64,000 bases of DNA from Alphaproteobacteria bacterium (GTDB taxonomy: Bacteria > Pseudomonadota > Alphaproteobacteria > GCA-2731375): the NCBI GenBank assembly GCA_030752605.1, contig JASMDX010000075.1, positions 17,086-81,085 on the forward strand, read 5' to 3'. The number at the start of each line of letters is the position of its first letter. Within the stretch, counting starts at the first letter, position 1. A program made the translations under genes and the position numbers. A model generated the notes under the pieces. The model saw only the letters and a program-made list of their open reading frames with translations, was not told where the DNA came from and searched no databases. Shown here piece by piece: positions 8,717 to 27,767 of the stretch.

Positions 8717-8743
8717 ACGTCGTCAGGAAGCGGGAGGGCTTCG

Positions 8744-10402
8744 GTGGTAAGACAGATTGGCCAGCCCGGACCCCGTCCCACTGAACCGGTGCAGATGCGC
8801 CTGTCAGGCAACGAAGGCCGGGTTCCTGGGCGGCATCGCCGCTTTTCAATGTTAACCTTGCGGATACTGGCACCGAATGTGCTGGCCCTGGGCGTTCTTG
8901 TCGGGGGCATCTTTTATCTGGATCAATACCGCGATCTTCTGCTTGATGATAAGGTCGCGGCGCTGCAAAGTCAGGCTGAAGTGATTGCCGGTGCGCTGGG
9001 TGAGAGCGCCCTGACCAGCTCCGAGGACCGCCGCCTGGATGGCGAAATTTCCGCCCGCATTATCCGCCGTCTAGTCGCACCTACTCTGACCAGGGCTCGT
9101 CTGTATATGCCAAGTGGCGACATGCTGGCGGATTCGCGGCAGCTCATCGGCGCTGGTAGGCAGGTGCAACTGCGCTATTTGGCTCCCGCCGATCCATCGG
9201 ATCATGTGGTGCATTTTTTTAACCGAATCTATGACTGGCTGCTACCCAGCCTGCCGCGAGGCCCCGCTTTTCCCCGCTACCAGGAACGGCTCGGCCGTGG
9301 CCTGCTGGACTACCCTGAGTTGACGGTAGCCATGGGGGGTGAGGTCGGCGGCGCCATCCGCATGCTAAAGAATGAAACACTAATCCTGACGGTGGCGGTG
9401 CCGGTGCAGCAATTGCGCCGGGTAGTTGGGGCCCTGTTGCTGTCTGCCGACAGTGTCGATATCGAGGAAGGCTTGCGCAACGCGCGCCTTGCCATTTTGC
9501 AGGCGTCCGCCCTGGCGCTGACCGTGACGGTATTGATGTCGTTCTTTCTGGCCGGGACCATCGCTAGGCCGGTGCGCCATTTGGCCACGGCCGCTGACCG
9601 GGTGCGGCGCTGGCGGGGCCGCCGCGCGCAAATCCCTGATCTGAGCCGCCGTCACGATGAAATCGGCGATTTGAGCGTTGCCTTGCATGAAATGACCGAG
9701 GCCTTGTATGGCCGACTGGATGCCATCGAGGTCTTTGCCGCGGATGTGGCCCATGAAATCAAGAATCCCTTGACGTCGCTGCGCAGCGCCTTGGAATCCA
9801 TCGAGCGCACGGAAGACCCGAACCAAAAGCATCATCTGATGGAGGTAATGGCCCAGGATGTGCGCCGCATGGACCGTTTGATAAGCGATATTTCCAATGC
9901 CTCCCGGATCGATACGGAACTGGCGCGGGAGGAATCGGAAACCGTTGATTTGACGGCATTGCTACAAACCTTGATTTCCATGCGGCAATCGGCCACCGGA
10001 ACGCCGGGCCCGAGGTTCGAGTTGCACGTGGATACTGGCGACCCGGTCCTGATTGAGGGGCTGCCCAGCCGCCTCGGTCAGGTGGTCGACAATCTGGTTG
10101 GCAATGCGCTGTCATTTTCCCCAGCCTGTGGCGTGATCCGGCTATCCTTGGAGCGTCAGGGGGAAATGGCGCAATTGGATGTCGAGGATGATGGCCCAGG
10201 TATAGCGTCGGGGCAGGAAGAAGCGATTTTTCAGAGGTTTTACAGCCAGCGCCCACCAGGGGAGACCTTTGGCCAGCATTCCGGCCTAGGTCTATCCATC
10301 TGCCGACAAATCGTCGAGGCCCATGGCGGCACCATCACGGCGGGAAGACGCGCGGAGCTGGATGGCGGAGCACGCTTTACCGTTCGGCTGCCTATGCCTT
10401 GA
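8744..10402 (+). CDS. chvG: sensor histidine kinase ChvG/ExoS
   Basis: GTG start with GGGAGGG RBS. N-terminal TM, periplasmic domain, HAMP. HisKA FAADVAHEIKNPLTSL and HATPase_c (…GNALSF…DDGPGI…GLGLSI…). Immediately downstream of chvI. Confidence 0.88.
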   Translation: MVRQIGQPGPRPTEPVQMRLSGNEGRVPGRHRRFSMLTLRILAPNVLALGVLVGGIFYLDQYRDLLLDDKVAALQSQAEVIAGALGESALTSSEDRRLDGEISARIIRRLVAPTLTRARLYMPSGDMLADSRQLIGAGRQVQLRYLAPADPSDHVVHFFNRIYDWLLPSLPRGPAFPRYQERLGRGLLDYPELTVAMGGEVGGAIRMLKNETLILTVAVPVQQLRRVVGALLLSADSVDIEEGLRNARLAILQASALALTVTVLMSFFLAGTIARPVRHLATAADRVRRWRGRRAQIPDLSRRHDEIGDLSVALHEMTEALYGRLDAIEVFAADVAHEIKNPLTSLRSALESIERTEDPNQKHHLMEVMAQDVRRMDRLISDISNASRIDTELAREESETVDLTALLQTLISMRQSATGTPGPRFELHVDTGDPVLIEGLPSRLGQVVDNLVGNALSFSPACGVIRLSLERQGEMAQLDVEDDGPGIASGQEEAIFQRFYSQRPPGETFGQHSGLGLSICRQIVEAHGGTITAGRRAELDGGARFTVRLPMP

Positions 10403-13672: not shown

Positions 13673-14347
13673 ATGCTTCTTGCCATTGAAGGCATTGACG
13701 GCGCCGGCAAGGGAACCCTGTGCCGCGAATTGCTGGCCCGCGCCGAGGCAGCGGGAATCAGTGCCGCCGCGCTGTCCTTTCCGCGTTACGAGCAGACCCA
13801 ATTTTCCGATCTGATCGGGCGCTATCTGCGTGGCGAAATGGGCGAGATCGACCAGGTGCCCGTTCGCTATACTGCCCTGCTGTATGGTGGTGACCGTTTT
13901 GAAAGCCGTGGTCAGCTGTTGGAATTGATCGCGGCCCACGATTTGGTGATCCTGGACCGCTATGTTGCCTCCAATATCGCCTATAACGCGGCTAAGGTCC
14001 CCGAGAATGAGCGCGTCGGTTTGATCTCTTGGATTGAGCAGTTGGAATTCGATCTGTTTGCGCTGCCGCGGCCAGACCTCACCCTGCTGCTGGCGACCTC
14101 CACCGTCTTGGCGGATCGCCTGATCGGCCAGAAAGCCGCCCGCAGCTATACCGAAGAGACCCGTGACCTGCACGAAGCCGACCGCGACTTCCTCTCCATC
14201 GTGGCGGATGTCTATGGCGGCTTAGCTGCAGCGGGCGGTGATCGCTGGCTTCGTGTCGAACCCTTGGCCGCTGATGGCACGCTGCGACCACCGGCCGACA
14301 TCGCGGCCACGGTCTGGCAACATCCCGGCCTTGCGGCGTTAGGGTAG
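13673..14347 (+). CDS. tmk: thymidylate kinase-like P-loop kinase (actinobacterial-type Tmk)
   Basis: MLLAIEGIDGAGKGT P-loop. …LDRYVASNIAYNAA… DRY/lid region. Colinear with mycobacterial TMPK rather than the usual proteobacterial Tmk. Confidence 0.65.
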   Translation: MLLAIEGIDGAGKGTLCRELLARAEAAGISAAALSFPRYEQTQFSDLIGRYLRGEMGEIDQVPVRYTALLYGGDRFESRGQLLELIAAHDLVILDRYVASNIAYNAAKVPENERVGLISWIEQLEFDLFALPRPDLTLLLATSTVLADRLIGQKAARSYTEETRDLHEADRDFLSIVADVYGGLAAAGGDRWLRVEPLAADGTLRPPADIAATVWQHPGLAALG

Positions 14348-14683
14348 GTCCAGGTTCACGATCACGGCGGCGGAGGCAATCACGGCCATGTCACCGACGG
14401 CTTCATCGGGTACATCCAGGCCACCCTTGACCACATTCACTGTCACCGCGCCGTAGGGCAGGGCGGCTTGCACCGCCTTTTGGTCGACTTCATCAGGTTG
14501 CTGTACGCCGATGGTGACGTCCACGAACATGGCGGTCTTGGGATCGACGCCAAGGGTGTGGAGCATGCTGAGAGAGGAATGATGCAAGGCATCATCCACG
14601 GCGCGCAGGGCGGCCTTGGTATAGTTGCCGCCGTGTAGGTCATTGCCGGCACCCATTTCCAATATAACGCGTCTTTTGCTCAT
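14339..14683 (-). CDS. Lin0512-family conserved protein (unknown function), paralog 1
   Basis: 114 aa. …EMGAGNDLHGGNYTKAA… carries the invariant GxGxDxHG family motif. Confidence 0.6.
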   Translation of the reverse strand: MSKRRVILEMGAGNDLHGGNYTKAALRAVDDALHHSSLSMLHTLGVDPKTAMFVDVTIGVQQPDEVDQKAVQAALPYGAVTVNVVKGGLDVPDEAVGDMAVIASAAVIVNLDLP

Positions 14684-14695
14684 GTTGATACTCCT

Positions 14696-15037
14696 CTACA
14701 CCACATCCAGGTACACTACGGCAGCGGCATGGGCCAATAGAGTGGCATCCGTGCCTTCCATATTGGGAATTTTCAGCCCTCCCTCGACCACGTCAACCGT
14801 GCCAGTACCATGGGGCAAAACAGCCTGTACCGCCGCTTTATCCACCTGCTCCGGATCGGGCACGCCGATGGTGACGGCCACTTGCATGGAATCCACATCC
14901 AGATCCAGCGCTTTCGCCACGGTCAGTGAGTTATGCCAGAGCGCGTCCCTAAGCGCGCGCACAGCTGCCTTGGTCGGATCCGTGCCGCGAATATCGGTAC
15001 CCATGCCAATTTCCAGCACCATGCGCTTCATCGCCAT
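14696..15037 (-). CDS. Lin0512-family conserved protein, paralog 2 (GxGxDxRG variant)
   Basis: ~113 aa, colinear with paralog 1 (MKRMVLEIGMGTDIRGTDPTKAAVRAL… vs MSKRRVILEMGAGNDLHGGNYTKAALRAV…). 12-bp spacer between the two genes. Confidence 0.6.
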   Translation of the reverse strand: MAMKRMVLEIGMGTDIRGTDPTKAAVRALRDALWHNSLTVAKALDLDVDSMQVAVTIGVPDPEQVDKAAVQAVLPHGTGTVDVVEGGLKIPNMEGTDATLLAHAAAVVYLDVV

Positions 15038-15127
15038 ATTGCAATCTCTCCATTTCCACAATTCCATGAAGTGTAGATCAGATATACTAGGTTGTCCGAT
15101 AAACTCTGAATTGGTCTATGATGGTGC

Positions 15128-15940
15128 ATGGCAGATCTGCGAATTTTTTCATACATGCCCAATCCGCGCATTTGGAAGGCGACCATTGCCGCGCGCCTTT
15201 GCGGCGTGGAGCTGGACTTGCGTGGGGCCAAGCCAGGTCAACTGGCCGAATGGCTTTGGGATTTCGATGCCCATCCCCTGACCGAGGCGGACCGGCGAGC
15301 TGGCAGCCCGTTTGCCCGGCAGAGCCGTACCGGATTTTCCGGGCAGCTCTATAAGACCGACGCTTTCTTGGCGGCGCACCCCTTTGGCACGGTGCCGGCG
15401 GCTTTCAGTCCCGATGGCGAGGTTGGTATATTCGAATCCAACAGCATCGCCCGCACGGTGGCGCGCCTGCGCCGCCACGGTCCCCAGCTATACGGCGATG
15501 ACGCCTATTCGGCGGCCCGCATAGACAGCTTTCTTGATGTCAGCTTGATCTTCGCCCGCGATGGGCAGAACTATCTTCTGGCCCTGAATGGCGGCGTCAT
15601 TGACGCGAATATACATTGCCAGGCCGCCAAGGCCTTTGAAATCTATCTGAGTGGCATGGAGGCGGCACTGTCATCCGAGCATGGTTATCTGGTCGGCGAT
15701 GATCTGACCCTGGCCGATATTGTTTTCGCGGCGGAACTATGTTCGTTCGCACGCGAGGCGGCGCATTTGGAGCGGCTAGCGGCGCGGAACTTGCCGGAAA
15801 TCTTCCATGGTGCCGTCGCCGACGATTATCCTGCCGCCCTGGATCATTTTGCAAGGCTGCGTGCCCACGAAGCGTTTGCTCCGGATATAGAGCCTTTCAT
15901 GGAGAAACTCGAAATGCGGCGGCGGACAGCCGAAAGTTAA
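15128..15940 (+). CDS. glutathione S-transferase family protein
   Basis: GST N-terminal thioredoxin-like fold (…RIFSYMPNPRIWKA…) and a C-terminal helical domain. 270 aa. Confidence 0.55.
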   Translation: MADLRIFSYMPNPRIWKATIAARLCGVELDLRGAKPGQLAEWLWDFDAHPLTEADRRAGSPFARQSRTGFSGQLYKTDAFLAAHPFGTVPAAFSPDGEVGIFESNSIARTVARLRRHGPQLYGDDAYSAARIDSFLDVSLIFARDGQNYLLALNGGVIDANIHCQAAKAFEIYLSGMEAALSSEHGYLVGDDLTLADIVFAAELCSFAREAAHLERLAARNLPEIFHGAVADDYPAALDHFARLRAHEAFAPDIEPFMEKLEMRRRTAES

Positions 15941-16215
15941 TGCCTTGATTGCGTTGGCGGCGCTTCGACGGCCAGCTCAATGTCGTCTTCGGCGCCCATG
16001 GCGCCTGTGGACGCGGCGGCAAGGATCTCTCCGGCGGTCGAGCCGGCTGAGGTCGCGGCATAGGCGGCGAATTCCAACAGGGTCAGCGCCATGCATTTCG
16101 GGCAGATATTTTCCTGAATCATAGCCGTCATAAGGTCGCCACCAACCGATTTGTCGATCAACTGACGGATTTCTTCCTCGCATTCGTCGGCATGTTTGAA
16201 ATCGTCGTCGTCCAT
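15937..16215 (-). CDS. hypothetical small acidic protein (CPKC motif)
   Basis: 92 aa. MDDDDFKHADECEEEIRQLIDK…ICPKCMALTLLEF…, an acidic N-terminus and Ala-rich C-terminus. No family recognised. Lies downstream of ubiD on the same strand. Confidence 0.35.
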   Translation of the reverse strand: MDDDDFKHADECEEEIRQLIDKSVGGDLMTAMIQENICPKCMALTLLEFAAYAATSAGSTAGEILAAASTGAMGAEDDIELAVEAPPTQSRH

Positions 16216-16333
16216 GATAGCCCAATCCAGCCTGATTTGGTCTCAGCCACCCCGAAGCATAGCAGACAAGCGGGCCCAAAAATATCTAGAACTGAACCAG
16301 TATTGTGGCGCTATTGTGCTATTCGGCAGGTCT

Positions 16334-17848
16334 TTACCGCCAGATTGGCCGTCCCGATCCAGGCAGGCCGTAGTCGGCCCATTTTTCGCTAACGTCGGCG
16401 ATCACTTCGTCGCTCATGCGTAGCCGTTTGCCCCAGGTCCGCTTGGTCTCGGGAGGTATCTTGACGGTGGCGTCGAGGCCGAGTTTGCCGCCCAAGCCCA
16501 CCTCGGGCGAGGCAAAATCGAGATAATCGATGGGCGTGTCTTCAATTACCAGGCTATCGCGGCCCGGATCCATGCGGGTGGCGACGGCCCACATCACATC
16601 TTTCCAGTTGCGCGCGTCAATATCATCGTCGACCACGATGGCCAGCTTGGTGTAGGTGAATTGGCGCAGGTACGACCAGACTGCCATCATGATGCGCCGG
16701 GCATGTCCGGGGTAGGCTTTGCGAATGGAGACAACCGCGATGCGGTAGGAACAGGCCTCCGGTGGCAGCCAAAAATCAACGATTTCAGGAAATTGTAGCT
16801 GCAGGATCGGGATATAGAGCTCGTTCAGGGCCATAGACATGACCGCCGGCTCGTCGGGCGGCGGTCCGGTGTAGGTGGAGAGGTAGGTCGGCTTCCTGCG
16901 CATGGTGACCGCGCTGAGGGTGAAGACCGGGAACGACGCCACCGCGTTCAGGTGCCCAGTATGGTCCCCATAGGGTCCTTCGTCGCCGAATTCTTCATGC
17001 GAGACATGGCCTTCCAGGACGATCTCGGCTTCCGCCGGTACTTGCAACGGCACCGTCAGGCAATTCGCCATGCCGATCCGGCGGCCCCTTAAAAGACCAG
17101 CGAATTGATATTCCGACAAAGTATCAGGCAGCGGCGTTACCCCTGCGAGCATTGTGCAGGGATCCGCCCCGATGGCTGCGGCCACCGGCATCGGCTTGCC
17201 GTGAGCCTCGACCCAGCGGCGGTAATGCTGTGCCCCGCCCCGATGTGACATCCAGCGCATCAATACCTTGTTGCGGTCGATCACTTGCATTCGGTAGATG
17301 CCGATATTGTATTGATCCTCGGCGCTCTTGCCCGGTCCCTTGGTGATTATCATGGGCCAGATAATCAATGGCGCGGGCTCGCCCGGCCAGCAACGCGGGA
17401 TAGGCAGCCGGGCCAGATCGATCTCGCTACCGCGCCAGGTAATCTCCTGGCAGGGTGGTATCTTGCGCCGCGTTTTTTTTGGGGTCATCGCCCCGACCCG
17501 TTTTAGCAGCGGCATGGCGTCCGCTATGTCTTTCAGATTAGCCGGTGGCGAAGGTTGATGCAGGGCGGCCAGCATTTCACCGACCTGGCGCAATTCATCG
17601 GCCTTGCGCCCCATTGCCATGGCGACGCGGTCGACCGTGCCGAATAGATTGACCAGCACCGGCGTATCGTAGGTCTGGCCGTCCGGGCCGATGGGATTTT
17701 CAAATAGTGCCGCCGGTCCGCCTTCGGCCAGCAGGCGGGTCTGGATTTCGGTCATTTCCAGGGATGTCGAGACCGGCGTCTTGATCCGCACCAACTGTTT
17801 TTCTTTTTCCAGCCGGTCGATAAATTTGCCGAGGGTAAGGTCGATCAT
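16334..17848 (-). CDS. ubiD: UbiD-family decarboxylase (4-hydroxy-3-polyprenylbenzoate decarboxylase)
   Basis: 504 aa from MIDLTLGKFIDRLEKEKQLVRIKTPVS…, colinear with UbiD. AAGGCGGAG RBS. 10 bp downstream of ubiV. Confidence 0.8.
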   Translation of the reverse strand: MIDLTLGKFIDRLEKEKQLVRIKTPVSTSLEMTEIQTRLLAEGGPAALFENPIGPDGQTYDTPVLVNLFGTVDRVAMAMGRKADELRQVGEMLAALHQPSPPANLKDIADAMPLLKRVGAMTPKKTRRKIPPCQEITWRGSEIDLARLPIPRCWPGEPAPLIIWPMIITKGPGKSAEDQYNIGIYRMQVIDRNKVLMRWMSHRGGAQHYRRWVEAHGKPMPVAAAIGADPCTMLAGVTPLPDTLSEYQFAGLLRGRRIGMANCLTVPLQVPAEAEIVLEGHVSHEEFGDEGPYGDHTGHLNAVASFPVFTLSAVTMRRKPTYLSTYTGPPPDEPAVMSMALNELYIPILQLQFPEIVDFWLPPEACSYRIAVVSIRKAYPGHARRIMMAVWSYLRQFTYTKLAIVVDDDIDARNWKDVMWAVATRMDPGRDSLVIEDTPIDYLDFASPEVGLGGKLGLDATVKIPPETKRTWGKRLRMSDEVIADVSEKWADYGLPGSGRPIWR

Positions 17849-17858
17849 CGCTCCGCCT

Positions 17859-18794
17859 TTACTCAGCCGCCGCTTCGACCCAAAGCCGGCCTTCTTGGCC
17901 ATGCAGGTAGCCATTGGCCAAGGGTACATCGCCGATGATCTCGTCCAGACGCGCCTCCGCTTCCTCCACCGCCATTGCATCGTCGAGTGCGCTGCGGAAC
18001 AGCGCGGCGACCTGCACCATGTCACAACTGTGCGGCCATAGCCGGAAGCTGTCGATCCCGGCGGCTTTCAACGCGGGCAGTTCAGCCAGCAGGCTGCAAT
18101 AGGTGTCGGACAGGGTCTGCGTGCCATTGATGGCCAGGAAAGGCTCGTCATCCAGGGTCTCGATGGTCAGGCCGTCGGGATCATTACCGCAAACGAATTG
18201 GCAGCCGTCCTTGTGCAGATCATGGGCCCGCGCGTGATAGCAGCGGGCCGAAATCGCCAGGGGCAGCCGGCCAAAAACCTGCACCTCCAGCGATACATCC
18301 TTGACGGCTTTGGTTTGGCCCAGGGCTTCGAGGGTGTCGAGCGAAAGCTCCGCCGGTAGCGAGATCCGATAGGCACCGCGCTTGGCCAGGTAGTTGATGG
18401 TGCCTCCGTTGTAGGCATTGACGAAAGGTCCGATAACGTGGCGCCGCCCGGCCAGCAGTGATGCGGTGGAAATATCATTGGCCTCGAAGGTCAGATCCGC
18501 GTCGACGGTGGTCTGTTTGATCTCATCCATCTCCTCCGCCGTCATGATCAACGCCAGGGTCGAGAGCACGACATCCTTGCCGGCCTTTTTCAGGCGCTCA
18601 TGCACCGCCGCGATATGCGGCAGGATAAATGGCCGCCGTTTGGCGCAAACAACCTCGCCCAGATAGACCGTTTCGATGTCCGCTTCGTCGGCGATGCGGA
18701 AATAGAAATCCCGCCAGCGTTCCGCATCCCAATGAAACAGCGTTGGTCCCAATGCCAGGCTGGTGGTTGATTTGGCCGCTTTCCGGTTTGTCAT
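17859..18794 (-). CDS. ubiV: U32-family peptidase-like protein UbiV
   Basis: …LALGPTLFHWDAERWRDFY…VYLGEVVCAKRR…VVLSTLALI… matches YhbV/UbiV. 4-nt ATGA overlap with ubiU. Confidence 0.8.
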   Translation of the reverse strand: MTNRKAAKSTTSLALGPTLFHWDAERWRDFYFRIADEADIETVYLGEVVCAKRRPFILPHIAAVHERLKKAGKDVVLSTLALIMTAEEMDEIKQTTVDADLTFEANDISTASLLAGRRHVIGPFVNAYNGGTINYLAKRGAYRISLPAELSLDTLEALGQTKAVKDVSLEVQVFGRLPLAISARCYHARAHDLHKDGCQFVCGNDPDGLTIETLDDEPFLAINGTQTLSDTYCSLLAELPALKAAGIDSFRLWPHSCDMVQVAALFRSALDDAMAVEEAEARLDEIIGDVPLANGYLHGQEGRLWVEAAAE

Positions 18795-19819
18795 CGCCAG
18801 GCCCTCCGATAGGCGCCGGAGGTTTCGCGCTGGCCCTCGGTCACATCCGCCAACTGGGGCATCTCGGGGATCGGCTCGCCCCGGCGGCAGGCGTCGATGG
18901 CGGCGCGGAAGGCCGCGACCACTTGTGCCGTGTAGGCGCGGCCGCGCTGCCGGCCCTCGATCTTCAAGGCGGAAACGCCGGCGGCCATCAACTCCGGCAA
19001 CAAGGGCAGGACGTTGAGGGAGGTCGGTGCCTCGAACAGGTACGAGGCGCGGCCGTCAGCCACGAAACGGCCCTTGCACAGGGTGGGATAACCGGCGGCG
19101 TCGCTTTGCTGAAAGATGTTGATGGTGAAATCGCCCAGTCGCGAGACCATCTCGGAGCCACGCTCCTCATAGCGGACATGGCTGGCGGGCGAACACACCC
19201 CGGTGATATTGGGTGACTTGCCGGTAACGTAGGACGACAGCAGGCACCGCCCCTCGGCCATGGGGCACATGCCGCCAAAGGCGAAAACTTCCGTCTCCAC
19301 CGGGATCTGGCTGTTCAACTCGGCGATATCCTCCACCGTCAGAACCCTGGGCAGGACCACGCGGCGTACGCCGAATGCCTCGTGATAAAAGCGGATCGCC
19401 TCGGCGTTCGAGGCCGAGGCCTGCACGGATAGATGCAGGCGCAAATCCGGGTGCTGCCTGGCCGCGTAGTCGAGGATGCCAATATCGGCCAGGATAACCG
19501 CGTCAACGCCTAGGTCGGCGGCGCAATCGATGGCGCGGTGCCAGGCCTCGGGCGCACCGGCGCGGGGAAAGGTGTTGATGGCGACAAAGACCATGCAGTA
19601 GCGCGCGTGGGCATATTCCAGGCCGTCCGCCAGTTCTTCCGGGCTGAAATTTAGGCCGGGGAAATTGCGCGCGTTGGTTTCGTCACGAAAGCCGAGATAG
19701 ACCGCTTCCGCCCCGGCATCGACGGCGGCCCGCAACGCCGCCGGCGTGCCCGCCGGGCAGATTAGTTCCAGATCACCCAAAATGGTTTCGGGTTTGGCTT
19801 TGGCACCGGTTGTGGCCAT
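18791..19819 (-). CDS. ubiU: U32-family peptidase-like Fe-S protein UbiU
   Basis: …LELICPAGTPAALRAAVDAGAEAVYLGFRDETNARNFPGLNFSPEE… …VFAFGGMCPMAEGRCLLSSY…GVCSPASHV…LCKGRF (4-Cys cluster). Strongly colinear with E. coli YhbU/UbiU. Confidence 0.85.
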   Translation of the reverse strand: MATTGAKAKPETILGDLELICPAGTPAALRAAVDAGAEAVYLGFRDETNARNFPGLNFSPEELADGLEYAHARYCMVFVAINTFPRAGAPEAWHRAIDCAADLGVDAVILADIGILDYAARQHPDLRLHLSVQASASNAEAIRFYHEAFGVRRVVLPRVLTVEDIAELNSQIPVETEVFAFGGMCPMAEGRCLLSSYVTGKSPNITGVCSPASHVRYEERGSEMVSRLGDFTINIFQQSDAAGYPTLCKGRFVADGRASYLFEAPTSLNVLPLLPELMAAGVSALKIEGRQRGRAYTAQVVAAFRAAIDACRRGEPIPEMPQLADVTEGQRETSGAYRRAWR

Positions 19820-19821
19820 GT

Positions 19822-20580
19822 TTATCCCTGTACCGCTGGTGTTTTCGAGGCGCGGCGGCGGCGTGATGAACCGCTCCGCGCCATGCTCTGGTGCAGATGA
19901 TCAACGGCGGCGGTTTGCGTCTCGATCCGTTCCATGGCGGGTTGCAACAGCGCATCCTGCAGCATGGCCATGTCGGCTCCGGCCCGGCGCGCCAATCGCA
20001 AGGCGACTTTGGCGGCCCGCCGCGCGGGCCGCGCCAAAGGGCCGGCCCGGACCAGGATATCGTCGATAATGTCGATTTCCTCGCCATCGACGGCGTTGCG
20101 CAGGGCTACCACGGCCTCCGTATCACCCTCGATCAACAGGCGGCGGGAAAAAAACAGCGCATCGCCGTCAACCCGGCCTTCCAGAAGATCGATCAGGGCC
20201 AGGAGAGAGCCGTGTATGGCCGCCGTGGCGCGGGACACATCAGCTTCGCGGGCAATGGTTAGCTTTGGTTGTTCGGCATCCGCTTTCAGCAGAAAGCGGA
20301 TCGGCAGATCGACGGGATCGATCAGGAATATCGTGTCGGCATGGCTGTCCAGGCGTTCAAACATTCCTGGATGCTGCTTGGTGACGGACGCCATCACGGC
20401 GCGCAGGAGGGGCCGCAGCACTACGTTGGGGATTGGTGCCAGCAACAAACCACCCAACAGCACTGGCGAAAAGGGCGGAACCATGCTTGCCCGGCCCGCG
20501 CTTATGGCGCCTTTGCCCCCTTGTTCAGGGCTATCCTGAGAGTCATTCAAAATATCGGTCATAGCGGTCAAATTTACCAT
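19822..20580 (-). CDS. ubiT: SCP2-domain protein UbiT (start uncertain)
   Basis: …LFFSRRLLIEGDTEAVVALRNAV… SCP2 signature as in YhbT/UbiT. Directly upstream of ubiU. Alternative starts at 20562 and 20484. Confidence 0.75.
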   Translation of the reverse strand: MVNLTAMTDILNDSQDSPEQGGKGAISAGRASMVPPFSPVLLGGLLLAPIPNVVLRPLLRAVMASVTKQHPGMFERLDSHADTIFLIDPVDLPIRFLLKADAEQPKLTIAREADVSRATAAIHGSLLALIDLLEGRVDGDALFFSRRLLIEGDTEAVVALRNAVDGEEIDIIDDILVRAGPLARPARRAAKVALRLARRAGADMAMLQDALLQPAMERIETQTAAVDHLHQSMARSGSSRRRRASKTPAVQG

Positions 20581-20674
20581 GCCAGCCAGCCCTGCTCCAT
20601 GCTGCTGCCCCTATGGCCCTGCGGCATAATGCCGCGACGCTGGGGCCAATCGCGGCCTATCCTCATATAATAGC

Positions 20675-20706
20675 GCCCTATTTGAAGCGTGCCATCCGAT
20701 AGGGCG
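20675..20706 (-). terminator. putative intrinsic terminator (stem CGCCCTAT/ATAGGGCG followed by UAUUAUAU) at the 3' end of the seven-gene operon
   Basis: 8-9 bp inverted repeat overlapping the oxidoreductase stop codon. A U-rich tract follows on the minus strand. The loop is long (17 nt), so confidence is moderate. Confidence 0.35.
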
Positions 20707-21931
20707 TCAGATCCACATCGGTAGGTTCACCGGCGACCAGCGCGGCGGTAATGCGGCCAGTGTTTGGCGCCATGCCGAAACCGTAGTGGCTGTGGCCAAA
20801 GGCGGCAAACAGGTCACGCTGGCCCGGCACCGTGCCGATGCAGGGCAGGCTATCTGGGAACGATGGGCGGCTGCCCATCCATTCTACCGGGTCGTCGGTG
20901 TTGATGTCGGGGAACAGCCGTTTCGCCAGGCCCTTGAAAATTTCAGCCCGACGATAGTTAGGCGCGGCATCAAGGCCGGCGAATTCGGCGGTGCCGGCAC
21001 AGCGCACCCCGGCCAGCATGGAAGAGGCTACGAATTTGCTCTCCGTATCCATGATGGAATTATTAACCGTGATGCCCGGCTGTTGCAGGATCAGATGATA
21101 GCCGCGTTCGGCCTCCAGCGGCAGATTTAGGCCCGATTGCTCTAGCAGCGGCGCAAGCAGGCGTGCCGACCAGGCGCCGGCGGCGATGACCACTTTGTCG
21201 CTGGTAATTTCGCCATCATCCGTCTGCAGCCGCCAGCCACCGCTTTCTTGTGGCGCGATCCGGTTAACGCCGGTCTGCCTGAACACCGCTCCCATATCCT
21301 GGGCCTTGGCGACCAGGGCCTTGCCAACGCCACCGGGTGAAAGGGCACGGGCCTGCGACTTGATCAATACCGCCGCTTTGTAGCGGGGCGACAGCGCGGG
21401 TTCAAGCTCATGGAGTGCGCCATCGTCAACGACCTCCAACGGCACATCGCGGTCCAGGCGCAGTTGCCAGCCCAACTGCTTCAGGTCAATCTCGGCTGGA
21501 TCACGGTAGATATGAACGTAGAAACTATCGCTGATCAGATGCTCCGAACCGGTACCCTGCAAAAGCTGGCGGTAAAGTTCGATATTGGGCCGGTTCAAGG
21601 CTTTCATGGCGTCGGCGATTTGGGGTAACTCGGCGACATTGCCGGCGCGCAGGAATTTTATGGCCCAGGGCAGGAACGAGGGTAGATAAGGCCAACGCAG
21701 TGCGATAGGACCTTCGGGATCCAACAGCCAGCGCGGTACGCTGCGCCACAGCCCCGGCATGGACTGCGGCACGCAGGTCCAGGGCGACACCACCCCGGCG
21801 TTGCCGTGGCTGGCCCCCTCCGCCGGCGGATCACGGTCGACGACCTCGACCGCCAGGCCTTTTTCGCGCAGATATACGGCGGTACAGATGCCGACAATGC
21901 CGGCGCCTACGATCGTAACCTGCTTAGCCAT
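20678..21931 (-). CDS. FAD-dependent oxidoreductase (DadA/D-amino-acid dehydrogenase-like)
   Basis: MAKQVTIVGAGIVGICTAVYLREKGLAVEVVDRD Rossmann GxGxxG. 417 aa, DAO-family length. Confidence 0.75.
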   Translation of the reverse strand: MAKQVTIVGAGIVGICTAVYLREKGLAVEVVDRDPPAEGASHGNAGVVSPWTCVPQSMPGLWRSVPRWLLDPEGPIALRWPYLPSFLPWAIKFLRAGNVAELPQIADAMKALNRPNIELYRQLLQGTGSEHLISDSFYVHIYRDPAEIDLKQLGWQLRLDRDVPLEVVDDGALHELEPALSPRYKAAVLIKSQARALSPGGVGKALVAKAQDMGAVFRQTGVNRIAPQESGGWRLQTDDGEITSDKVVIAAGAWSARLLAPLLEQSGLNLPLEAERGYHLILQQPGITVNNSIMDTESKFVASSMLAGVRCAGTAEFAGLDAAPNYRRAEIFKGLAKRLFPDINTDDPVEWMGSRPSFPDSLPCIGTVPGQRDLFAAFGHSHYGFGMAPNTGRITAALVAGEPTDVDLTPYRMARFK

Positions 21932-21951
21932 CGGCGACCATCCCTATTCTC

Positions 21952-23526
21952 TTATATCGCGACTTCAATCAGATACGGTCCTTCGCTATGCAGGCCGCTA
22001 TCAAAGGCCGTGGCCAGTTCCTCCGCCGTGGTTACCCGCGATGCCTCCACGCCCATGCCCTTGGCCATTTGCACCCAATCCAGGTTGGGCCGGTCGATGG
22101 ACAGCATATCCACCGCACGGGGGCCGGGGTTGAGCACGCCCACATTTGTCAATTCGCCACGCAGGATATTGTAGGTGCCGTTGGCGAAGAGCAACACGGT
22201 GACATCGAGATTTTCCCGCGCCATGGTCCACAGGGATTGCACCGTGTACATACAACTCCCATCGCCTTCCAGGGCGATGACCTTGCGGTCCGGGCAGGCG
22301 ATGGCGGCGCCGACGGCGACAGGCAGGCCGTAGCCGATGGAGCCGCCCCGGTTGTTGATCCAGTCATGCGGTGGCGCGCCGGCGGTTGTGGGGAAGAATT
22401 CCCGCCCCGTGGTGACGCTTTCATCGACCACGATGGCGCCCTCGGGCACCATGGCGCCCAGCACGGCGGCAATAGCGGCGGGCGTGATCTCGCCCGTGGG
22501 CAGGGCCGGACGATGCGGTGCCGCAACGCCGGCGGGCTCCATATCCAGGCAGTCCAGTTCAATGGCCAAGGCTTCCAGGGCGGCTTCCATATCCTCATCC
22601 GTACCGGCCAACAACGTGGATTTGGCATCCGGGTCCACCAACAGAGAGGGCTTGTCGGGATATGCGAAAAAAGCAACCGGCTCCCGCGCGCCGACCATCA
22701 CCAGATCACCGGCTTTTTTCATGACTTCAAGCGCCAGTTCCACCACATAGGGCACGCGGTTGACCTGTACCCGGCCCGCACCCCTTTCCAGGCGGGTATT
22801 GGCGCCTTCGGTCAGGATGCCGCAACCGGTCTTGGCGGCGATCCGGCCCGCCAGGTTCAGGCTGCGCTCGCGCAGGGCTGCGCCGCCCATCAATAAAGTG
22901 GCATTATCGGAGGTGCGCAGCAGATCGGCGGCGGCCTTGACCGCATCGTCGGATACTTTGGGTGGCGCGCTGGGCGCCGTGGTTACGGCGACTTCGTCCG
23001 CCGGCCCCCAGGCGGTATCGGCGGGCAGGATCAGGGTGGCGATCTGTCCCGGTGTCTGGGTCGCCGCCTCGATCGCCAAGGCGCCGTCGCCGGCGATGGT
23101 CTTGGAGGTCGGCGATGTCTTGACCCAATGGGACATGGACGCTGCCGTGCCCTCGATGTCGGCGGTCAGGGGCGCATCGTACTTAATGTGATAGGTGGCA
23201 TGTTCGCCGACGATATTGACGACGGCGGAGTCCGCCTTCTTGGCGTTATGCAGGTTGGCCAAACCATTGGCCAGGCCGGGCGCCAAATGCAGCAGGGTCG
23301 ATGCCGGCTTGCCCAGCATGCGGTAATAGCCGTCGGCGGCGCCGGTCACCACGCCCTCGAACAGGCCCAGGACGCAACGCATGCCCGGTACCTTGTCCAG
23401 GGCGGCGACGAAATGCATCTCGGATGTACCCGGATTGGTGAAGCAGACCGTGACGCCGCCGTCGATCAGGGTGCGGACCAGGCTTTCGGCGCCATTCATT
23501 TCATCGGAATTTATCTCGTTACTCAT
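21952..23526 (-). CDS. thiamine-pyrophosphate enzyme, acetolactate-synthase-like (POX/ALS family)
   Basis: 524 aa. Pyr domain N-terminus. TPP motif …ALEGDGSCMYTVQSLWTMARENLDVTVLLFANGTYN (GDG-X24-N). Confidence 0.75.
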   Translation of the reverse strand: MSNEINSDEMNGAESLVRTLIDGGVTVCFTNPGTSEMHFVAALDKVPGMRCVLGLFEGVVTGAADGYYRMLGKPASTLLHLAPGLANGLANLHNAKKADSAVVNIVGEHATYHIKYDAPLTADIEGTAASMSHWVKTSPTSKTIAGDGALAIEAATQTPGQIATLILPADTAWGPADEVAVTTAPSAPPKVSDDAVKAAADLLRTSDNATLLMGGAALRERSLNLAGRIAAKTGCGILTEGANTRLERGAGRVQVNRVPYVVELALEVMKKAGDLVMVGAREPVAFFAYPDKPSLLVDPDAKSTLLAGTDEDMEAALEALAIELDCLDMEPAGVAAPHRPALPTGEITPAAIAAVLGAMVPEGAIVVDESVTTGREFFPTTAGAPPHDWINNRGGSIGYGLPVAVGAAIACPDRKVIALEGDGSCMYTVQSLWTMARENLDVTVLLFANGTYNILRGELTNVGVLNPGPRAVDMLSIDRPNLDWVQMAKGMGVEASRVTTAEELATAFDSGLHSEGPYLIEVAI

Positions 23527-23558
23527 TGGTAGATGTCTCCTAGATGCATATTCAGTTC

Positions 23559-25292
23559 TCAGCTGGCGCGCAGCCTGACCGTGGCGGCTTCGTCCACTGA
23601 CTTACCATCCCCGCTTAGCTTAACGCCATAAATCTCTTCGCCGGCCTGTAGGCTGACGACGCCGTCGCGGATATCGCGTAGCACCCGCCATGGCTCCCGC
23701 TGTTTCGGATCGCCCCAGCCACCGCCGCCTGGTGATGAGGCGCGCAGGGTCAGGGGGCCGAAATGGCGGACGGCGTACTTCGGTGGCGTTTCTCTACCGC
23801 CATGGGCAAACGATACTTCCATGTCGCCGGGCTGGCCCGCGGCCCCGCCCGCGGCCCCGAAGCAGGACGTGTTGTACAGTCCCTCGCCGCGAAAGGCGTA
23901 TTCGGCATCGACATTGATCTCAACCTCGAAATCGGCGCCGGTGCCGCCGCGATAGGCGCCGGAGCCGGCGGCATCGGTGCGGAATTCCTGCCGTTTGAAC
24001 AGCACGGGATAGAGTTGCTCGTATGTTTCCACATTGGGCAACACCAGGCCGCCCAGGGCGATCAGATGGCCGATCTGGTTGAAACCGTCGCGGCCTTCGA
24101 CGCCGCCGCCGCCAGGCGCGGAATTCCATTGATACATCACGAATGGGCTCTCTCCGCCTGTCCTGCCTGATGTGGTGCCATGTATGGCCTTGCCCCAACC
24201 GGCGCAGCTGCGTTCGGGCACCGCCTGGTTCAGGGTTTTCCAGATCACATGTACGATCTCGTGCGCGACGAAGACCGTGTTCATGGTCATGGCGGCGGGC
24301 GGTCTGGCATTGATGATGGTGCCTTCGGGCGCGATGATGGTCACCGTGCGGAAGGTGCCTTCGTTGCGTGGCAGATCCGGGTCGAAGTACGAGGCCAAGG
24401 CCATGTAGACAGCGGACCAGGTGTTGGCGACGGAGGAATTCTTGAAGCCTTTGACCTGTGGCGCGGTGCCGGTGAAATCAACCTCCAAGGCCTCACCCTT
24501 GACGCTCAGGCGCACCCGAATGGCATCATCAACAGGCTCAAAGCAGTCGTTGTCGATGGCTTCTTCGGCGTGGTAGTTGCCGTCGGGCATGGCGGCGACA
24601 CAGCGGCGGAAGCTGCGGTCGGCATGTTCCAGGATGCCTTCGAAATAGTCCCGGTATTGCGTCATGCCAAGCTCTTCCACTAGGGCGGCGATGCGGTCGG
24701 CGCCGATCTTGGTGGAGCCGATCATGGCCCGTAGATCGCCATCCAGGGCCTCCGCCGTGCGCGTGTTGATCATCACCAGGCGCCAGATGTCCTGGCGCGT
24801 CTCGCCCTTGGCGATCAGTTTCATCACCGGCAGGCGGATGCCTTCGTGAAAAATCTCACGGGCTTCGGAATTGTAGGTCCCCGCCGCGCCGCCGCCAATA
24901 TCGGCTTGGTGGGCCCGGTTGCAGGCAAAGGCAACCAACTCGCCGCCAACAAATACCGGCCGGGCGATAACCCAGTCGGGCAGATGGTTGCCGCCCGCCG
25001 TGTAGGGATCGTTCAACAAAAAGACATCGCCATCATCGATATCACCGGCGAAATCCCGCAACAGGGCGCGCACGGCGAAACCGCCACCTCCCGTATGGAT
25101 GGGAATGCCGTCGGCCTGGCTGACCAGGGTGCCGTCGGGATCGGCGATGAAGCAGGAGAAATCGTGGCTTTGCGAGAAAATCGGGCTGCGCGCGGTCCGC
25201 GTCATGACCCAGCCCATCTGCCGCGATATATGATCCAAACGGTTCTGCACCAGGGCCAGGACGATCGGATCGAGACTGTCTTGACTGTTCAT
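23559..25292 (-). CDS. hyuB: hydantoinase B/oxoprolinase family protein
   Basis: 577 aa. …LDPIVLALVQNRLDHISRQMG…FSCFIADPDGTLVSQA… typical HyuB. 1-bp gap to hyuA. Confidence 0.85.
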   Translation of the reverse strand: MNSQDSLDPIVLALVQNRLDHISRQMGWVMTRTARSPIFSQSHDFSCFIADPDGTLVSQADGIPIHTGGGGFAVRALLRDFAGDIDDGDVFLLNDPYTAGGNHLPDWVIARPVFVGGELVAFACNRAHQADIGGGAAGTYNSEAREIFHEGIRLPVMKLIAKGETRQDIWRLVMINTRTAEALDGDLRAMIGSTKIGADRIAALVEELGMTQYRDYFEGILEHADRSFRRCVAAMPDGNYHAEEAIDNDCFEPVDDAIRVRLSVKGEALEVDFTGTAPQVKGFKNSSVANTWSAVYMALASYFDPDLPRNEGTFRTVTIIAPEGTIINARPPAAMTMNTVFVAHEIVHVIWKTLNQAVPERSCAGWGKAIHGTTSGRTGGESPFVMYQWNSAPGGGGVEGRDGFNQIGHLIALGGLVLPNVETYEQLYPVLFKRQEFRTDAAGSGAYRGGTGADFEVEINVDAEYAFRGEGLYNTSCFGAAGGAAGQPGDMEVSFAHGGRETPPKYAVRHFGPLTLRASSPGGGGWGDPKQREPWRVLRDIRDGVVSLQAGEEIYGVKLSGDGKSVDEAATVRLRAS

Positions 25293-25293
25293 A

Positions 25294-27369
25294 TCAATTC
25301 TCCGCCCCGTCGATTTCGATCAGGAAATTATCCGCTGCGTCCACCGACAAGCGGTCTTTCGGTCCGACAAACACCGTCGTGGTCAGCTCCTCCACCAGCA
25401 GCGGGCCGTCCCGGCAAAAGCCTGGCCGCAGATCGGCGCCGGTATAGACAGGCGTCTCCTGCCAGCCATGCCTGCCGTCCGTAAAGACTTGGCGCAGCGC
25501 GGTGGGTTCGGGCCGTTTATCCGATGGCTCAGCTGATATCGGATCCGTGACATCGATCAAGCCACGTGCGGTGACACGCAGGGCGGTGATCTCGATGGTG
25601 CCGCCCGGCTGGGTGTGGCCGTACTGCCGTTGATGATCCGCATCGAAGGAAACTCGAACGGCGCCTGGGTCGAAGCTGTCATCGGACAAGGCGACGCGGA
25701 TCGACCACAACTGGCCGCGATAGCGTAAGTCCAATTCCCGCTGCACTATCGCCTTGTCGCCGCTGAATCCTTCGGCGGCCAGCGCGGCCTGCGCCCGATC
25801 AGCCAGGGGCTCGAAAGCCTGTTGCAAGGTGGTGCCGTCGACGCTGTCCAGATTGTCGAAATGCACGGCCAGATAATCCTGGCGAATGTCCGTGTGCAAC
25901 ATGCCCAGGGCGCAAAAGGCGCCCGCCTGGCGCGGCACATAAGCCTGGCCGCAGCCCAACGAGCGGGCCACGGAGGCGCCATGCATGGGCCCGGCGCCGC
26001 CAGCGGCTACCAGAGTGAAGCGGCGCGGATCGTGGCCCCGCTGGATCGAGATATGCTCCACCGCATGCAGCAGGTTCTGTTCCAACAGGCGGATGATGCC
26101 TGCTGCCGCTTCTTCGACCCGAATTCCCAAAGGGGCCGCGATCTTGCTCTCGATAGCCTGCCACGCCAGCTTGTCGTCCAAGGTCACGCTGCCGCCCGCA
26201 TAGGGACCGGGGCGCAGGCGGCCCAGAACCATATAGGCGTCGGTGACGGTTGGCTGATCGCCGCCCTGGCCATAACAGGCCGGGCCGGGCAGGGCACCCG
26301 CGCCCAGTGGGCCCACATGCAGCAAACCGGCCTCGTCCACATGGGCGATGGTGCCGCCGCCCGCACCCACGGTATGGATTTCCACCGAGGGCGTGGCCAG
26401 GTGATAGCCGTCGATGTTCAGCTCGTCCGTCACGCCGACCTGGCCTTCGCCCATCAGGGTAACATCGCAACTGGTGCCGCCGATCTCCATGGCGATCAGA
26501 TTGTTCGTGCTCGCCGCCCGGCTATAGAGGCCCAGGGCGCCGACGCCGGCGGCGGGACCCGAGAGCACCAGATTGACCGGCCGCTCCGAGACCTGTTCGA
26601 CGGACACCGCGCCGCCGTTGCTTTGCAGCAATAAAATCGGCCGGGCCAAGCCGTTATCGCGTAAATGGCTGTCCAGATCCCTTAGGTAACCGACCACATT
26701 CGGTGCGATGTAGGCATTGACCACGGTGGTCGAGGTGCGTTCGTACTCCCCCATGATCGGGGCGATGCGGCTGGATAGCGAGACCCAGGGAAATGCTTCC
26801 AGGTGTTTCGCCACCGCATCCTCGTGCGCCGGATTGCCATAGCTGTTCAGCAAGGCAACGGCGATGGCGTCCACCTCTTCCTCGGCAAAGACCGCCATCG
26901 CCGCATCAACGTCGCTCAATGCGATGGACGCCAGTTCGACACCGTTCTTGTCCAGGCGGCCAGCCACGGGTTGGCGGAGATAACGCGGCACCAAAACGTC
27001 GGGAAAAGGTGCGCGGTGATCCCACATGTTCTCCCGTATACCACGGCGTACTTCCAGGCTGTCGCGGAAGCCGGTGGTGGTCAGCAGGCCGACCTTGGCG
27101 CCTTTCTTTTCTAGAATGGTGTTCGTAGCGACGGTGGATCCATGAAAAAACAAAGCGCAATTGCCAAGTAAATCAGACAGTTCGATCGACAACTGGTCCG
27201 CCGCCCGCGCCAGCACCGACATGACACCCTGGCTGGGATCGGCGGGCACGGAGGGCGCCTTGAACACCCACAGGGAGCCGGTTTGATCGCGCAGCACCAT
27301 GTCCGTGAAGGTGCCGCCCACATCGACGCCGATGCGCCAAGGTGCTGCTGGTTGCGCGCCGCTCACCAC
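25294..27369 (-). CDS. hyuA: hydantoinase A/oxoprolinase family protein
   Basis: 691 aa. WRIGVDVGGTFTDMVL ATPase motif, …GGTSCDV… GTG start overlapping the upstream TGA (GTGA). Confidence 0.85.
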   Translation of the reverse strand: MVSGAQPAAPWRIGVDVGGTFTDMVLRDQTGSLWVFKAPSVPADPSQGVMSVLARAADQLSIELSDLLGNCALFFHGSTVATNTILEKKGAKVGLLTTTGFRDSLEVRRGIRENMWDHRAPFPDVLVPRYLRQPVAGRLDKNGVELASIALSDVDAAMAVFAEEEVDAIAVALLNSYGNPAHEDAVAKHLEAFPWVSLSSRIAPIMGEYERTSTTVVNAYIAPNVVGYLRDLDSHLRDNGLARPILLLQSNGGAVSVEQVSERPVNLVLSGPAAGVGALGLYSRAASTNNLIAMEIGGTSCDVTLMGEGQVGVTDELNIDGYHLATPSVEIHTVGAGGGTIAHVDEAGLLHVGPLGAGALPGPACYGQGGDQPTVTDAYMVLGRLRPGPYAGGSVTLDDKLAWQAIESKIAAPLGIRVEEAAAGIIRLLEQNLLHAVEHISIQRGHDPRRFTLVAAGGAGPMHGASVARSLGCGQAYVPRQAGAFCALGMLHTDIRQDYLAVHFDNLDSVDGTTLQQAFEPLADRAQAALAAEGFSGDKAIVQRELDLRYRGQLWSIRVALSDDSFDPGAVRVSFDADHQRQYGHTQPGGTIEITALRVTARGLIDVTDPISAEPSDKRPEPTALRQVFTDGRHGWQETPVYTGADLRPGFCRDGPLLVEELTTTVFVGPKDRLSVDAADNFLIEIDGAEN

Positions 27370-27767
27370 CGGGACGCCTTGTCTTGGATCGAAACGTGGG
27401 CCGCGACGACCTTCCAGCCCAGATCGGGAAACTTCACCCAGGTTTGCGATTGCCGGCCCACTTCGTCCTGACCGCGGACCTTGAATTCCAGGTTCACGGT
27501 GGCGAAACTGTCGCCCAGGGTGAGGATTTCCAGGCGACGGCGCACTTCCTTGATGCCGGGACCTGGCGCGCGCGAGGTTCGGTGTTTATGGATCTCGTCG
27601 AAACCATAGCCGTTTTCGTGCATGGCATAGCGAATTGTCTTGGTGCTGTCCCAAAAGGTGTTGTCCAGAACATTCACATCTTTGTCGATCAGGGCCTGTT
27701 CATATTCCTCGAACAGGGCAGTAATTTCCGCCACTACGTCCGGATCGTTTTCGACAAGTGTATTCAC
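27363..27767 (-). CDS. DUF3225 / NTF2-like protein (AtzH/HpxZ-like)
   Basis: ~134 aa from a GTG that overlaps the amidase TGA (GTGA). VNTLVENDPDVVAEITALFEEYEQALIDKDVNVLDNTFWDS… NTF2-like cone. The 183-aa ORF-track call is an over-extension into the amidase gene. Confidence 0.6.
   Translation of the reverse strand: MNTLVENDPDVVAEITALFEEYEQALIDKDVNVLDNTFWDSTKTIRYAMHENGYGFDEIHKHRTSRAPGPGIKEVRRRLEILTLGDSFATVNLEFKVRGQDEVGRQSQTWVKFPDLGWKVVAAHVSIQDKASRW

Follow-up and report, generated by a model that had tools for sequence, protein, structure and literature searches.

A putative ubiT-ubiU-ubiV-ubiD operon links the UbiD decarboxylase to O2-independent ubiquinone hydroxylation genes in an uncultured marine alphaproteobacterium

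Organization of the ubiTUVD locus

We analyzed a 64-kb stretch of DNA (contig JASMDX010000075.1, hereafter the window) from an uncultured marine alphaproteobacterium, in which three genes of the O2-independent ubiquinone pathway, ubiT, ubiU and ubiV, are followed on the same strand by ubiD, the predicted gene for a prenylated flavin mononucleotide (prFMN)-dependent decarboxylase. As summarized in Table 1, the four genes lie in the order T-U-V-D and are tightly packed: ubiT and ubiU are separated by a 2-bp gap (TAA-AC-ATG), ubiU and ubiV overlap by 4 nt (ATGA), and ubiV and ubiD are separated by a 10-bp gap (TAA-AGGCGGAGCG-ATG) that contains a ribosome-binding site. These values match exactly those given in the initial annotation of this DNA. 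Such packing implies that the genes are probably co-transcribed and their translation coupled, and we consider it likely that ubiT-ubiU-ubiV-ubiD constitutes a single four-gene transcription unit.

Table 1. Positions of the ubiquinone genes and candidate control elements in the window
Feature	Position	Strand	Description
ubiT	19822-20580	minus	predicted SCP2-domain accessory factor of the O2-independent ubiquinone pathway; 252 aa
ubiU	18791-19819	minus	predicted U32-family [4Fe-4S] protein, half of the O2-independent hydroxylase; 342 aa
ubiV	17859-18794	minus	predicted U32-family [4Fe-4S] protein, UbiU partner; 311 aa; start overlaps ubiU stop (ATGA)
ubiD	16334-17848	minus	predicted prFMN-dependent 4-hydroxy-3-polyprenylbenzoate decarboxylase; 504 aa; divergent clade found in T-U-V-D operons only
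ubiV-ubiD spacer	17849-17858	minus	AGGCGGAGCG; Shine-Dalgarno-like GGAG 4 nt before the ubiD ATG, read from the sequence
ubiT leader	20581-20677	minus	97-bp intergenic stretch between a same-strand flavin adenine dinucleotide (FAD)-oxidoreductase gene and ubiT
candidate operator palindrome	20621-20635	unstranded	41-55 nt upstream of the ubiT ATG; GCGGCAT(A/T)ATGCCGC
candidate 8-codon upstream open reading frame	20574-20600	minus	ATGGAG..., MEQGWLAW*; stop overlaps the ubiT start codon

The mechanical open reading frame (ORF) of ubiD reaches a GTG at 18025, use of which would create an overlap of 167 nt with ubiV. AGGCGGAG precedes the ATG at 17848, and the 504-aa product that starts there is the one called by NCBI on a near-identical public contig, where the 252-aa UbiT is likewise called. 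Contig JAMYFT010037759.1 (GCA_024711825.1) differs from the window by 2 bases in 21 kb, and the window proteins are present on dozens of contigs in NCBI, JGI, ENA and Tara Oceans. The public records carrying these proteins are metagenome-assembled genomes labelled 'Alphaproteobacteria bacterium' or 'Rhodospirillaceae bacterium', and they name the four products SCP2-domain protein, U32 peptidases and, with nothing more specific from NCBI, UbiD family decarboxylase.

UbiT, UbiU and UbiV of the O2-independent pathway

UbiT, UbiU and UbiV each score above the curated equivalog cut-offs, in agreement with the identities first assigned to them. UbiU matches NCBIfam model NF047963 with 523.1 bits (cut-off 440), its residues 17-342 covering positions 1-331 of the 331-position profile, and is 50-51% identical to E. 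coli UbiU. UbiV scores 367.9 bits against NF047965 (cut-off 275) and is 34% identical to its E. coli counterpart. Using the iron-sulfur (Fe-S) ligand cysteines of E. coli UbiU and UbiV from Pelosi et al. 2019 (PMC6747719), we found that UbiU C185, C192, C209 and C248 align with C169, C176, C193 and C232, and that UbiV C50, C185, C198 and C202 align with C39, C180, C193 and C197, with the CXnCX12CX3C motif kept. The initial annotation would have been undermined by U32 proteins lacking these cysteines; all eight ligands are present on alignment. UbiU and UbiV are predicted to be two [4Fe-4S] U32 proteins that jointly hydroxylate the ubiquinone ring without O2, their pairing being visible in the window only as adjacency and the start/stop overlap.

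UbiT scores 73.6 bits against NCBIfam NF047962 (cut-off 46.9) and 35.9 bits against Pfam SCP2 (cut-off 21.3), and is 30% identical to E. coli UbiT over the SCP2 core, which spans residues ~49-170. UbiT is accordingly predicted to be the SCP2 lipid-binding accessory factor. Residues ~170-252 (19822-20070) form a C-terminal extension of ~60-80 aa, with a helix-like segment and a basic tail, that is conserved in alphaproteobacterial UbiT (L001, L003, L091 and L092) and that E. coli UbiT lacks. The combination of an SCP2 domain and a C-terminal extension resembles the architecture of UbiJ. We considered whether the length of UbiT (252 vs 174 aa in E. coli) is an anomaly, and rejected this view; in each of the eight related T-U-V(-D) loci whose gene calls were inspected, UbiT is 221-253 aa long. 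A 2026 preprint takes the occurrence of UbiU, UbiV and UbiT together as the definition of the O2-independent pathway, and the window encodes each of them. Elsewhere, a 532-aa UbiU homologue (P0150), 74% identical to the window UbiU, carries both U32 and SCP2 Pfam domains and appears to be a UbiT-UbiU fusion like that reported for Zymomonas.

UbiD is of the ubiquinone type

UbiD contains all three Pfam domains (UbiD_N, UbiD and UbiD_C), scores 483.5 bits against TIGR00148 (cut-off 244.85) and shares 54.5% identity with E. coli UbiD across 497 aa. Its best NCBIfam model is NF008175 (PRK10922), the 4-hydroxy-3-polyprenylbenzoate decarboxylase equivalog, with a score of 654.2 bits that is below the cut-off of 788. 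Residues R186, E290 and D295 align with R173, E277 and E282 of Fdc1, the Glu-Arg-Glu/Asp catalytic network, and N181 and E246 align with Fdc1 N168 and E233, which we take to be metal ligands. H202 is invariant and lies near Fdc1 H191, with an offset of 2 positions in the phmmer alignment. From its sequence, UbiD is predicted to be a prFMN-dependent decarboxylase converting 3-polyprenyl-4-hydroxybenzoate to 2-polyprenylphenol.

The score below the equivalog cut-off, a neighbourhood rich in catabolic genes and, in L001, an HpaB-type aromatic hydroxylase gene adjoining the block would all be accommodated if this UbiD-family protein acted on a non-ubiquinone aromatic acid and its gene were a mere neighbour of ubiTUV. 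We regard this alternative as highly improbable. Among solved structures, E. coli UbiD (2IDB/5M1B) is matched with 611 bits, whereas the best non-ubiquinone enzyme, a phenolic acid decarboxylase, reaches 142, and ferulic-acid, protocatechuate and other decarboxylases score no higher. The initial annotation had named grouping with such enzymes as the result that would count against it; UbiD instead sides with the ubiquinone enzymes. Likewise, the runner-up NCBIfam models, menaquinone-type (429 bits) and VdcC (243 bits), score well below the UbiD model, and the block travels as a unit through four genomic contexts. We also considered, and rejected, horizontal acquisition of ubiD: its third-position GC of 0.73 is as in neighbouring genes, and its nearest relatives are alphaproteobacterial.

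The T-U-V-D block recurs in related lineages

Beyond the window lineage (L089, L090 and L096), the T-U-V-D block is found in at least four further lineages, L001/L002, L097, L095 and L003/L004, whose UbiU proteins are respectively 89%, 86%, 85% and 75% identical to that of the window. The flanks comprise four unrelated contexts, and the gap between ubiV and ubiD is 8-10 bp in L001, L003 and L096, the loci where it was measured. Since the block recurs with differing flanks, the T-U-V-D adjacency is not due to chance. Plain alphaproteobacterial ubiT-ubiU-ubiV operons (Pelosi et al. 2019; L091-L094), with UbiU proteins 72-76% identical to that of the window, share the gene order, the overlapping junctions and the long UbiT; in contrast to the window, they have no downstream ubiD and most carry a TTGA-N6-TCAA motif upstream of ubiT. 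Among 56 metagenomic ubiU loci that extend far enough downstream to be informative, ubiD follows ubiV in only 2, and both belong to the clade of the window. Among the matches listed, ubiT, ubiU, ubiV and ubiX were not found within 10 kb of any of the 81 stand-alone ubiD loci. Taken together, these findings show T-U-V-D to be a genuine variant on a known pathway, specific to a single uncultured clade of Alphaproteobacteria.

A second linked architecture was observed in L167 (2638-4703), L169 (3204-5269) and L173 (3332-5325). As in the window, ubiD is physically linked to ubiTUV; unlike in the window, ubiX and ubiD run opposite in direction to ubiT-ubiU-ubiV from a shared intergenic region. The UbiD proteins of these loci are 53-57% identical to the window UbiD and keep the canonical YY discussed below (L173 also the canonical R).

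Operon-linked UbiDs form a divergent clade

To place the window UbiD, a neighbor-joining (NJ) tree of 86 UbiDs was rooted on E. coli and bootstrapped 200 times. It included four T-U-V-D-linked sequences and 81 stand-alone UbiDs that, among the matches listed (Rhodospirillales, Azospirillum, Rhizomicrobium and others), are 64-68% identical to the window UbiD. The four linked UbiDs were monophyletic in 200/200 bootstraps and have 19 substitutions in common that set them apart; nine of these alter residues shared by E. coli UbiD and at least 90% of the 81 alphaproteobacterial UbiDs. The YY of GDHTG-YY-N is replaced by HL or HM (window residues 299-300), four residues after the catalytic Asp, and the Arg of STYTG-R-PPDEP is replaced by Pro or His (window residue 329, P), giving the window signature GDHTG-HL-N and STYTG-P-PPDEP. 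The clade signature is also found in the UbiDs of L096 and L097 and is missing from the divergently linked UbiDs. Identity to E. coli UbiD is 53-58% for the linked clade, whereas the 81 others reach 57-64% (mean 61%). No shift is seen for UbiU in this clade, with 50-52% identity to E. coli UbiU vs a mean of 51%, and the acceleration of UbiD is therefore gene-specific.

This acceleration could reflect either a paralogue or a single gene that came under altered constraint on joining an anoxic module. In the former case the linked ubiD would be a second, specialised copy, as the initial annotation suggested. A canonical housekeeping ubiD would then exist elsewhere in the genome, and the role of the linked paralogue might be tied to UbiTUV through docking to an anaerobic complex or through O2-independent cofactor maturation. 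Its separate clade, the 19 substitutions with YY to HL/HM and R to P/H among them, and its lower similarity to E. coli UbiD would all suit such a paralogue. We nevertheless consider it unlikely: no second ubiD was seen in any fetched locus, the linked ubiD is the only copy in Hyphomicrobium denitrificans, all catalytic and metal-binding residues are kept, and faster evolution is equally expected of a single-copy gene restricted to anoxic episodes. Most simply, the linked UbiD would be the cell's own UbiD, dedicated to anoxia, rather than an extra copy.

A more speculative idea, to which we give somewhat less credence than to the paralogue, is that the YY to HL/HM and R to P/H changes re-tuned the UbiD of the T-U-V-D clade for anoxic work, for example for O2-independent prFMN activation or for handing the phenol over to a UbiT-UbiUV complex, with anaerobic ubiquinone synthesis then feedback-regulated by the quinone pool. 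Because the altered residues adjoin the catalytic acid, the linked clade provides a natural set of variants with which to study the activation and use of UbiD under anoxia.

Candidate regulatory elements upstream of ubiT

An Fnr/FixK box had been anticipated in the ubiT leader; we searched for one and it is absent. Neither a TTGAT-N4-ATCAA-type box, as in Fnr/FixK/Anr-regulated ubiTUV promoters, nor its TTGA-N6-TCAA core occurs within 300 nt upstream of ubiT in the window, and searches made exactly and with up to 3 mismatches returned no Fnr/FixK site with 2 or fewer mismatches at 19.6-24.7 kb of the window. Direct Fnr control within the window was rejected on these grounds. In 5 of 7 related loci (L001, L003, L091, L092 and L093), the first two of which are T-U-V-D loci, an exact TTGA-N6-TCAA core precedes ubiT by 90-150 nt. 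An Fnr-type box is also present in 29 of 57 metagenomic ubiT upstream regions (L096-L175), against a background of 0.015 per kb, and five marine loci (L145, L146, L150, L159 and L162) have two such boxes ~120 nt apart. The core was found upstream of 0 of the 81 stand-alone ubiD genes among the matches listed. Since Fnr boxes are common at ubiT-led operons and were not seen at stand-alone ubiD, membership in the operon would place ubiD under O2-responsive control.

The ubiT leader of the window contains a palindrome, GCGGCATAATGCCGC, that fits the 15-mer form GCGNCA-N3-TGNCGC and is the sole match to GCGNCANNNTGNCGC in the 64-kb window (background 0.021 per kb in 1.58 Mb of related DNA). It is kept in L095 (3593-3607), L096 (5185-5199) and, with one mismatch, L097 (~365-380), amid otherwise diverged leaders. 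The window and these three loci share the motif TCGCG[G/A]CA-N3-TG[C/T]C[G/A]CAG, followed by an 8-codon upstream ORF that starts with ATGGAG. The palindrome is present in exactly those T-U-V-D loci that have no Fnr box. Similar 15-mers, for example GCGTCAATATGGCGC, are known from chromatin immunoprecipitation sequencing of R. capsulatus RegA (PMC5359404), and we infer that the palindrome is a candidate RegA/PrrA-type operator. Because RegB monitors the ubiquinone pool, a RegA-like palindrome is an attractive lead, and Fnr-type control of ubiT may possibly have been replaced in the window lineage by a RegA/PrrA-like redox regulator. The sole two-component pair in the window (8021-10402) is OmpR/ChvG-like, not RegBA.

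Counterparts of the upstream ORF, of the same length and with the same ATGGAG start, encode MEQGWLVC* in L096, MEGCGLLC* in L095 and MEWHRLPC* in L097, and codon 6 specifies Leu in each of the four lineages. The upstream ORF of the window lacks a convincing ribosome-binding site, and we propose it as a candidate with low confidence. A weak sigma-70-like match (ATGGCA-17-TATTAT, 20695-20667) overlaps the upstream edge of the ubiT leader. A structured RNA leader or riboswitch was considered and rejected, as 15800-21000 gave no Rfam match at E <= 1 and the fold was no better than shuffled (z = +0.57). Matches to intrinsic terminators after ubiD and between the upstream gene cluster and ubiT were not above shuffled, and none was convincing.

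Several of these features would also be expected if the four genes were adjacent without being oxygen-responsive, their expression being constitutive or the result of read-through from the hydantoinase/amidase/TPP (thiamine pyrophosphate)-enzyme/oxidoreductase cluster upstream. Apart from the missing Fnr/FixK box, seven tightly packed same-strand genes end 97 bp upstream of ubiT with no convincing terminator in between, and the organism occurs in oxic-zone Tara samples. Conservation of the leader palindrome across four lineages instead points to dedicated regulation. Fnr-type boxes are retained at the related T-U-V-D loci L001 and L003, and E. coli is known to produce Fe-S proteins of the UbiU/UbiV type under low O2. 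On balance we find expression indifferent to oxygen improbable.

A putative anoxic module for ubiquinone synthesis

We propose that the four genes act as an O2-independent module, a role drawn from the literature. Hydroxylation and decarboxylation would be the ubiquinone steps for which bacteria have both O2-requiring routes (flavin monooxygenases and UbiB-dependent decarboxylation) and O2-independent ones (UbiUVT and UbiX/UbiD). Because both routes exist for these two steps, the operon would bundle their O2-independent versions as an 'anoxic module', one that would keep the marine alphaproteobacterium making ubiquinone when oxygen is scarce. E. coli strains mutated in ubiD or ubiX retain some ubiquinone synthesis only in air, and the alternative decarboxylation requires O2 and UbiB. 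UbiUVT is found in only ~2% of genomes that lack UbiX/UbiD. The 2026 preprint describes UbiX/UbiD as the decarboxylation route needed without oxygen and reports that many aerobic Alphaproteobacteria use the O2-requiring, UbiB-dependent route; it does not discuss gene linkage. The proposal of the initial annotation that decarboxylation is coupled to O2-independent hydroxylation in one tight, operon-like block is supported by these comparisons.

Several considerations weigh against this reading. There is no ubiX in the 64-kb window, nor within 6-10 kb in the relatives L001-L004 (tblastn with E. coli UbiX), which counts against it because UbiD is inactive without prFMN; UbiX, the maker of this cofactor, would have to be encoded elsewhere in the genome. 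The genes ubiA, ubiE, ubiG and ubiB and those for the O2-dependent hydroxylases are likewise outside the window. More broadly, neither tblastn with E. coli proteins nor Pfam scans detected ubiX, ubiB, any other ubi gene or a respiratory gene in the window; the Pfam scans took in 50 of the 54 called ORFs, and tblastn alone covered the four beyond 57.5 kb. Maturation of prFMN is described as oxidative, which makes anoxic activation of UbiD a puzzle in general. Co-transcription is deduced from gene spacing, the lack of an Fnr/FixK box in the window makes low-oxygen induction no more than a possibility, and the seven same-strand catabolic genes upstream make read-through or a different promoter possible. 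Finally, the changes in the linked UbiD at otherwise invariant positions, together with its faster evolution, could reflect a changed function.

Comparison with known systems

The same four families are present in E. coli (Pelosi et al. 2019, PMC6747719; Arias-Cartin et al. 2023, PMC10470549), with the Fe-S cysteines and the UbiD catalytic residues conserved. In contrast to the window, and as the initial annotation had correctly stated for the first two points, E. coli ubiT is transcribed divergently from ubiUV (3.30 Mb), with ubiD at a distance of 0.7 Mb (4.02 Mb); ubiX is also unlinked. Whereas E. coli ubiUV and one ubiT promoter are activated by Fnr, the window has no Fnr box.

The association of ubiD with ubiTUV is less novel than had been implied at the outset, since ubiXDTUV and ubiXTUVD sets are already named in the literature. 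The H. denitrificans cluster Hden_0564-0568 (UbiXDTUV) is co-regulated with denitrification and contains the only ubiD and ubiX of that organism (bioRxiv 10.1101/2025.02.17.638619 / PMC12423496). Like the window locus, it comes from an alphaproteobacterium, unites the decarboxylase gene with ubiTUV and is read as serving O2-independent ubiquinone synthesis. However, its order is X-D-T-U-V, it includes ubiX and it lies beside nitric-oxide reductase genes, whereas the window has the order T-U-V-D, no ubiX within 64 kb and no respiratory genes nearby. In photosynthetic Bradyrhizobium, ubiD is likewise listed with ubiTUV among the O2-independent ubiquinone genes (ubiDTUV/ubiXTUVD), alongside the nar/nap nitrate reductases, and both are described as necessary for denitrification (bioRxiv 10.1101/2023.06.14.544914 / PMC11973431). 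This case differs in that ubiX is included, and in that it is known from a presence/absence listing rather than from physical order. The survey of Pelosi et al. 2019 covered T/U/V architecture only (PMC6747719).

Thus, ubiD (and ubiX) had already been reported together with ubiTUV in Hyphomicrobium and Bradyrhizobium. New here are a T-U-V-D order that lacks ubiX and is confined to one uncultured marine clade, a divergent signature in UbiD and the candidate replacement of the Fnr box. The locus varies a known system instead of representing a new kind, and extends rather than overturns current understanding. An operon tying ubiD to ubiTUV would nonetheless provide independent genomic-context support for UbiD as the anoxic decarboxylase, and a compact four-gene module could be transferred to other hosts for testing. 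The module is also relevant to the life of planktonic heterotrophs in low-oxygen niches, because the organism belongs to an abundant uncultured marine lineage (Tara samples).

Neighboring genes

The cluster upstream of ubiT (20678-29956, minus strand) consists of at least seven tightly packed genes. Their products are an alpha/beta hydrolase, an amidase, an AtzH-like protein, hydantoinase/oxoprolinase A and B, a TPP enzyme (NF005760, 769 bits) and a D-amino-acid-dehydrogenase-like FAD oxidoreductase, and the cluster looks like a catabolic operon for a cyclic amide. The remainder of the window is occupied by genes for heterotrophic catabolism and transport.

Downstream of ubiD, at a distance of 118 nt, a 92-aa acidic ORF with a CPKC motif (15937-16215, minus strand) has no Pfam or NCBIfam match. 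Its 90%-identity cluster has 23 members, single members of which occur on 90 and 165 contigs. We considered this ORF as a fifth member of the operon and rejected it, as it matches no family and is absent downstream of ubiD in L001, L003 and L095. Further along are two tandem Lin0512-family genes of 114 and 123 aa (14339-15067, minus strand) and a convergent dTMP-kinase-like gene (13673-14347, plus strand; 182.6 vs an NCBIfam cut-off of 193), the 3' end of which overlaps the first Lin0512 gene by 9 nt.

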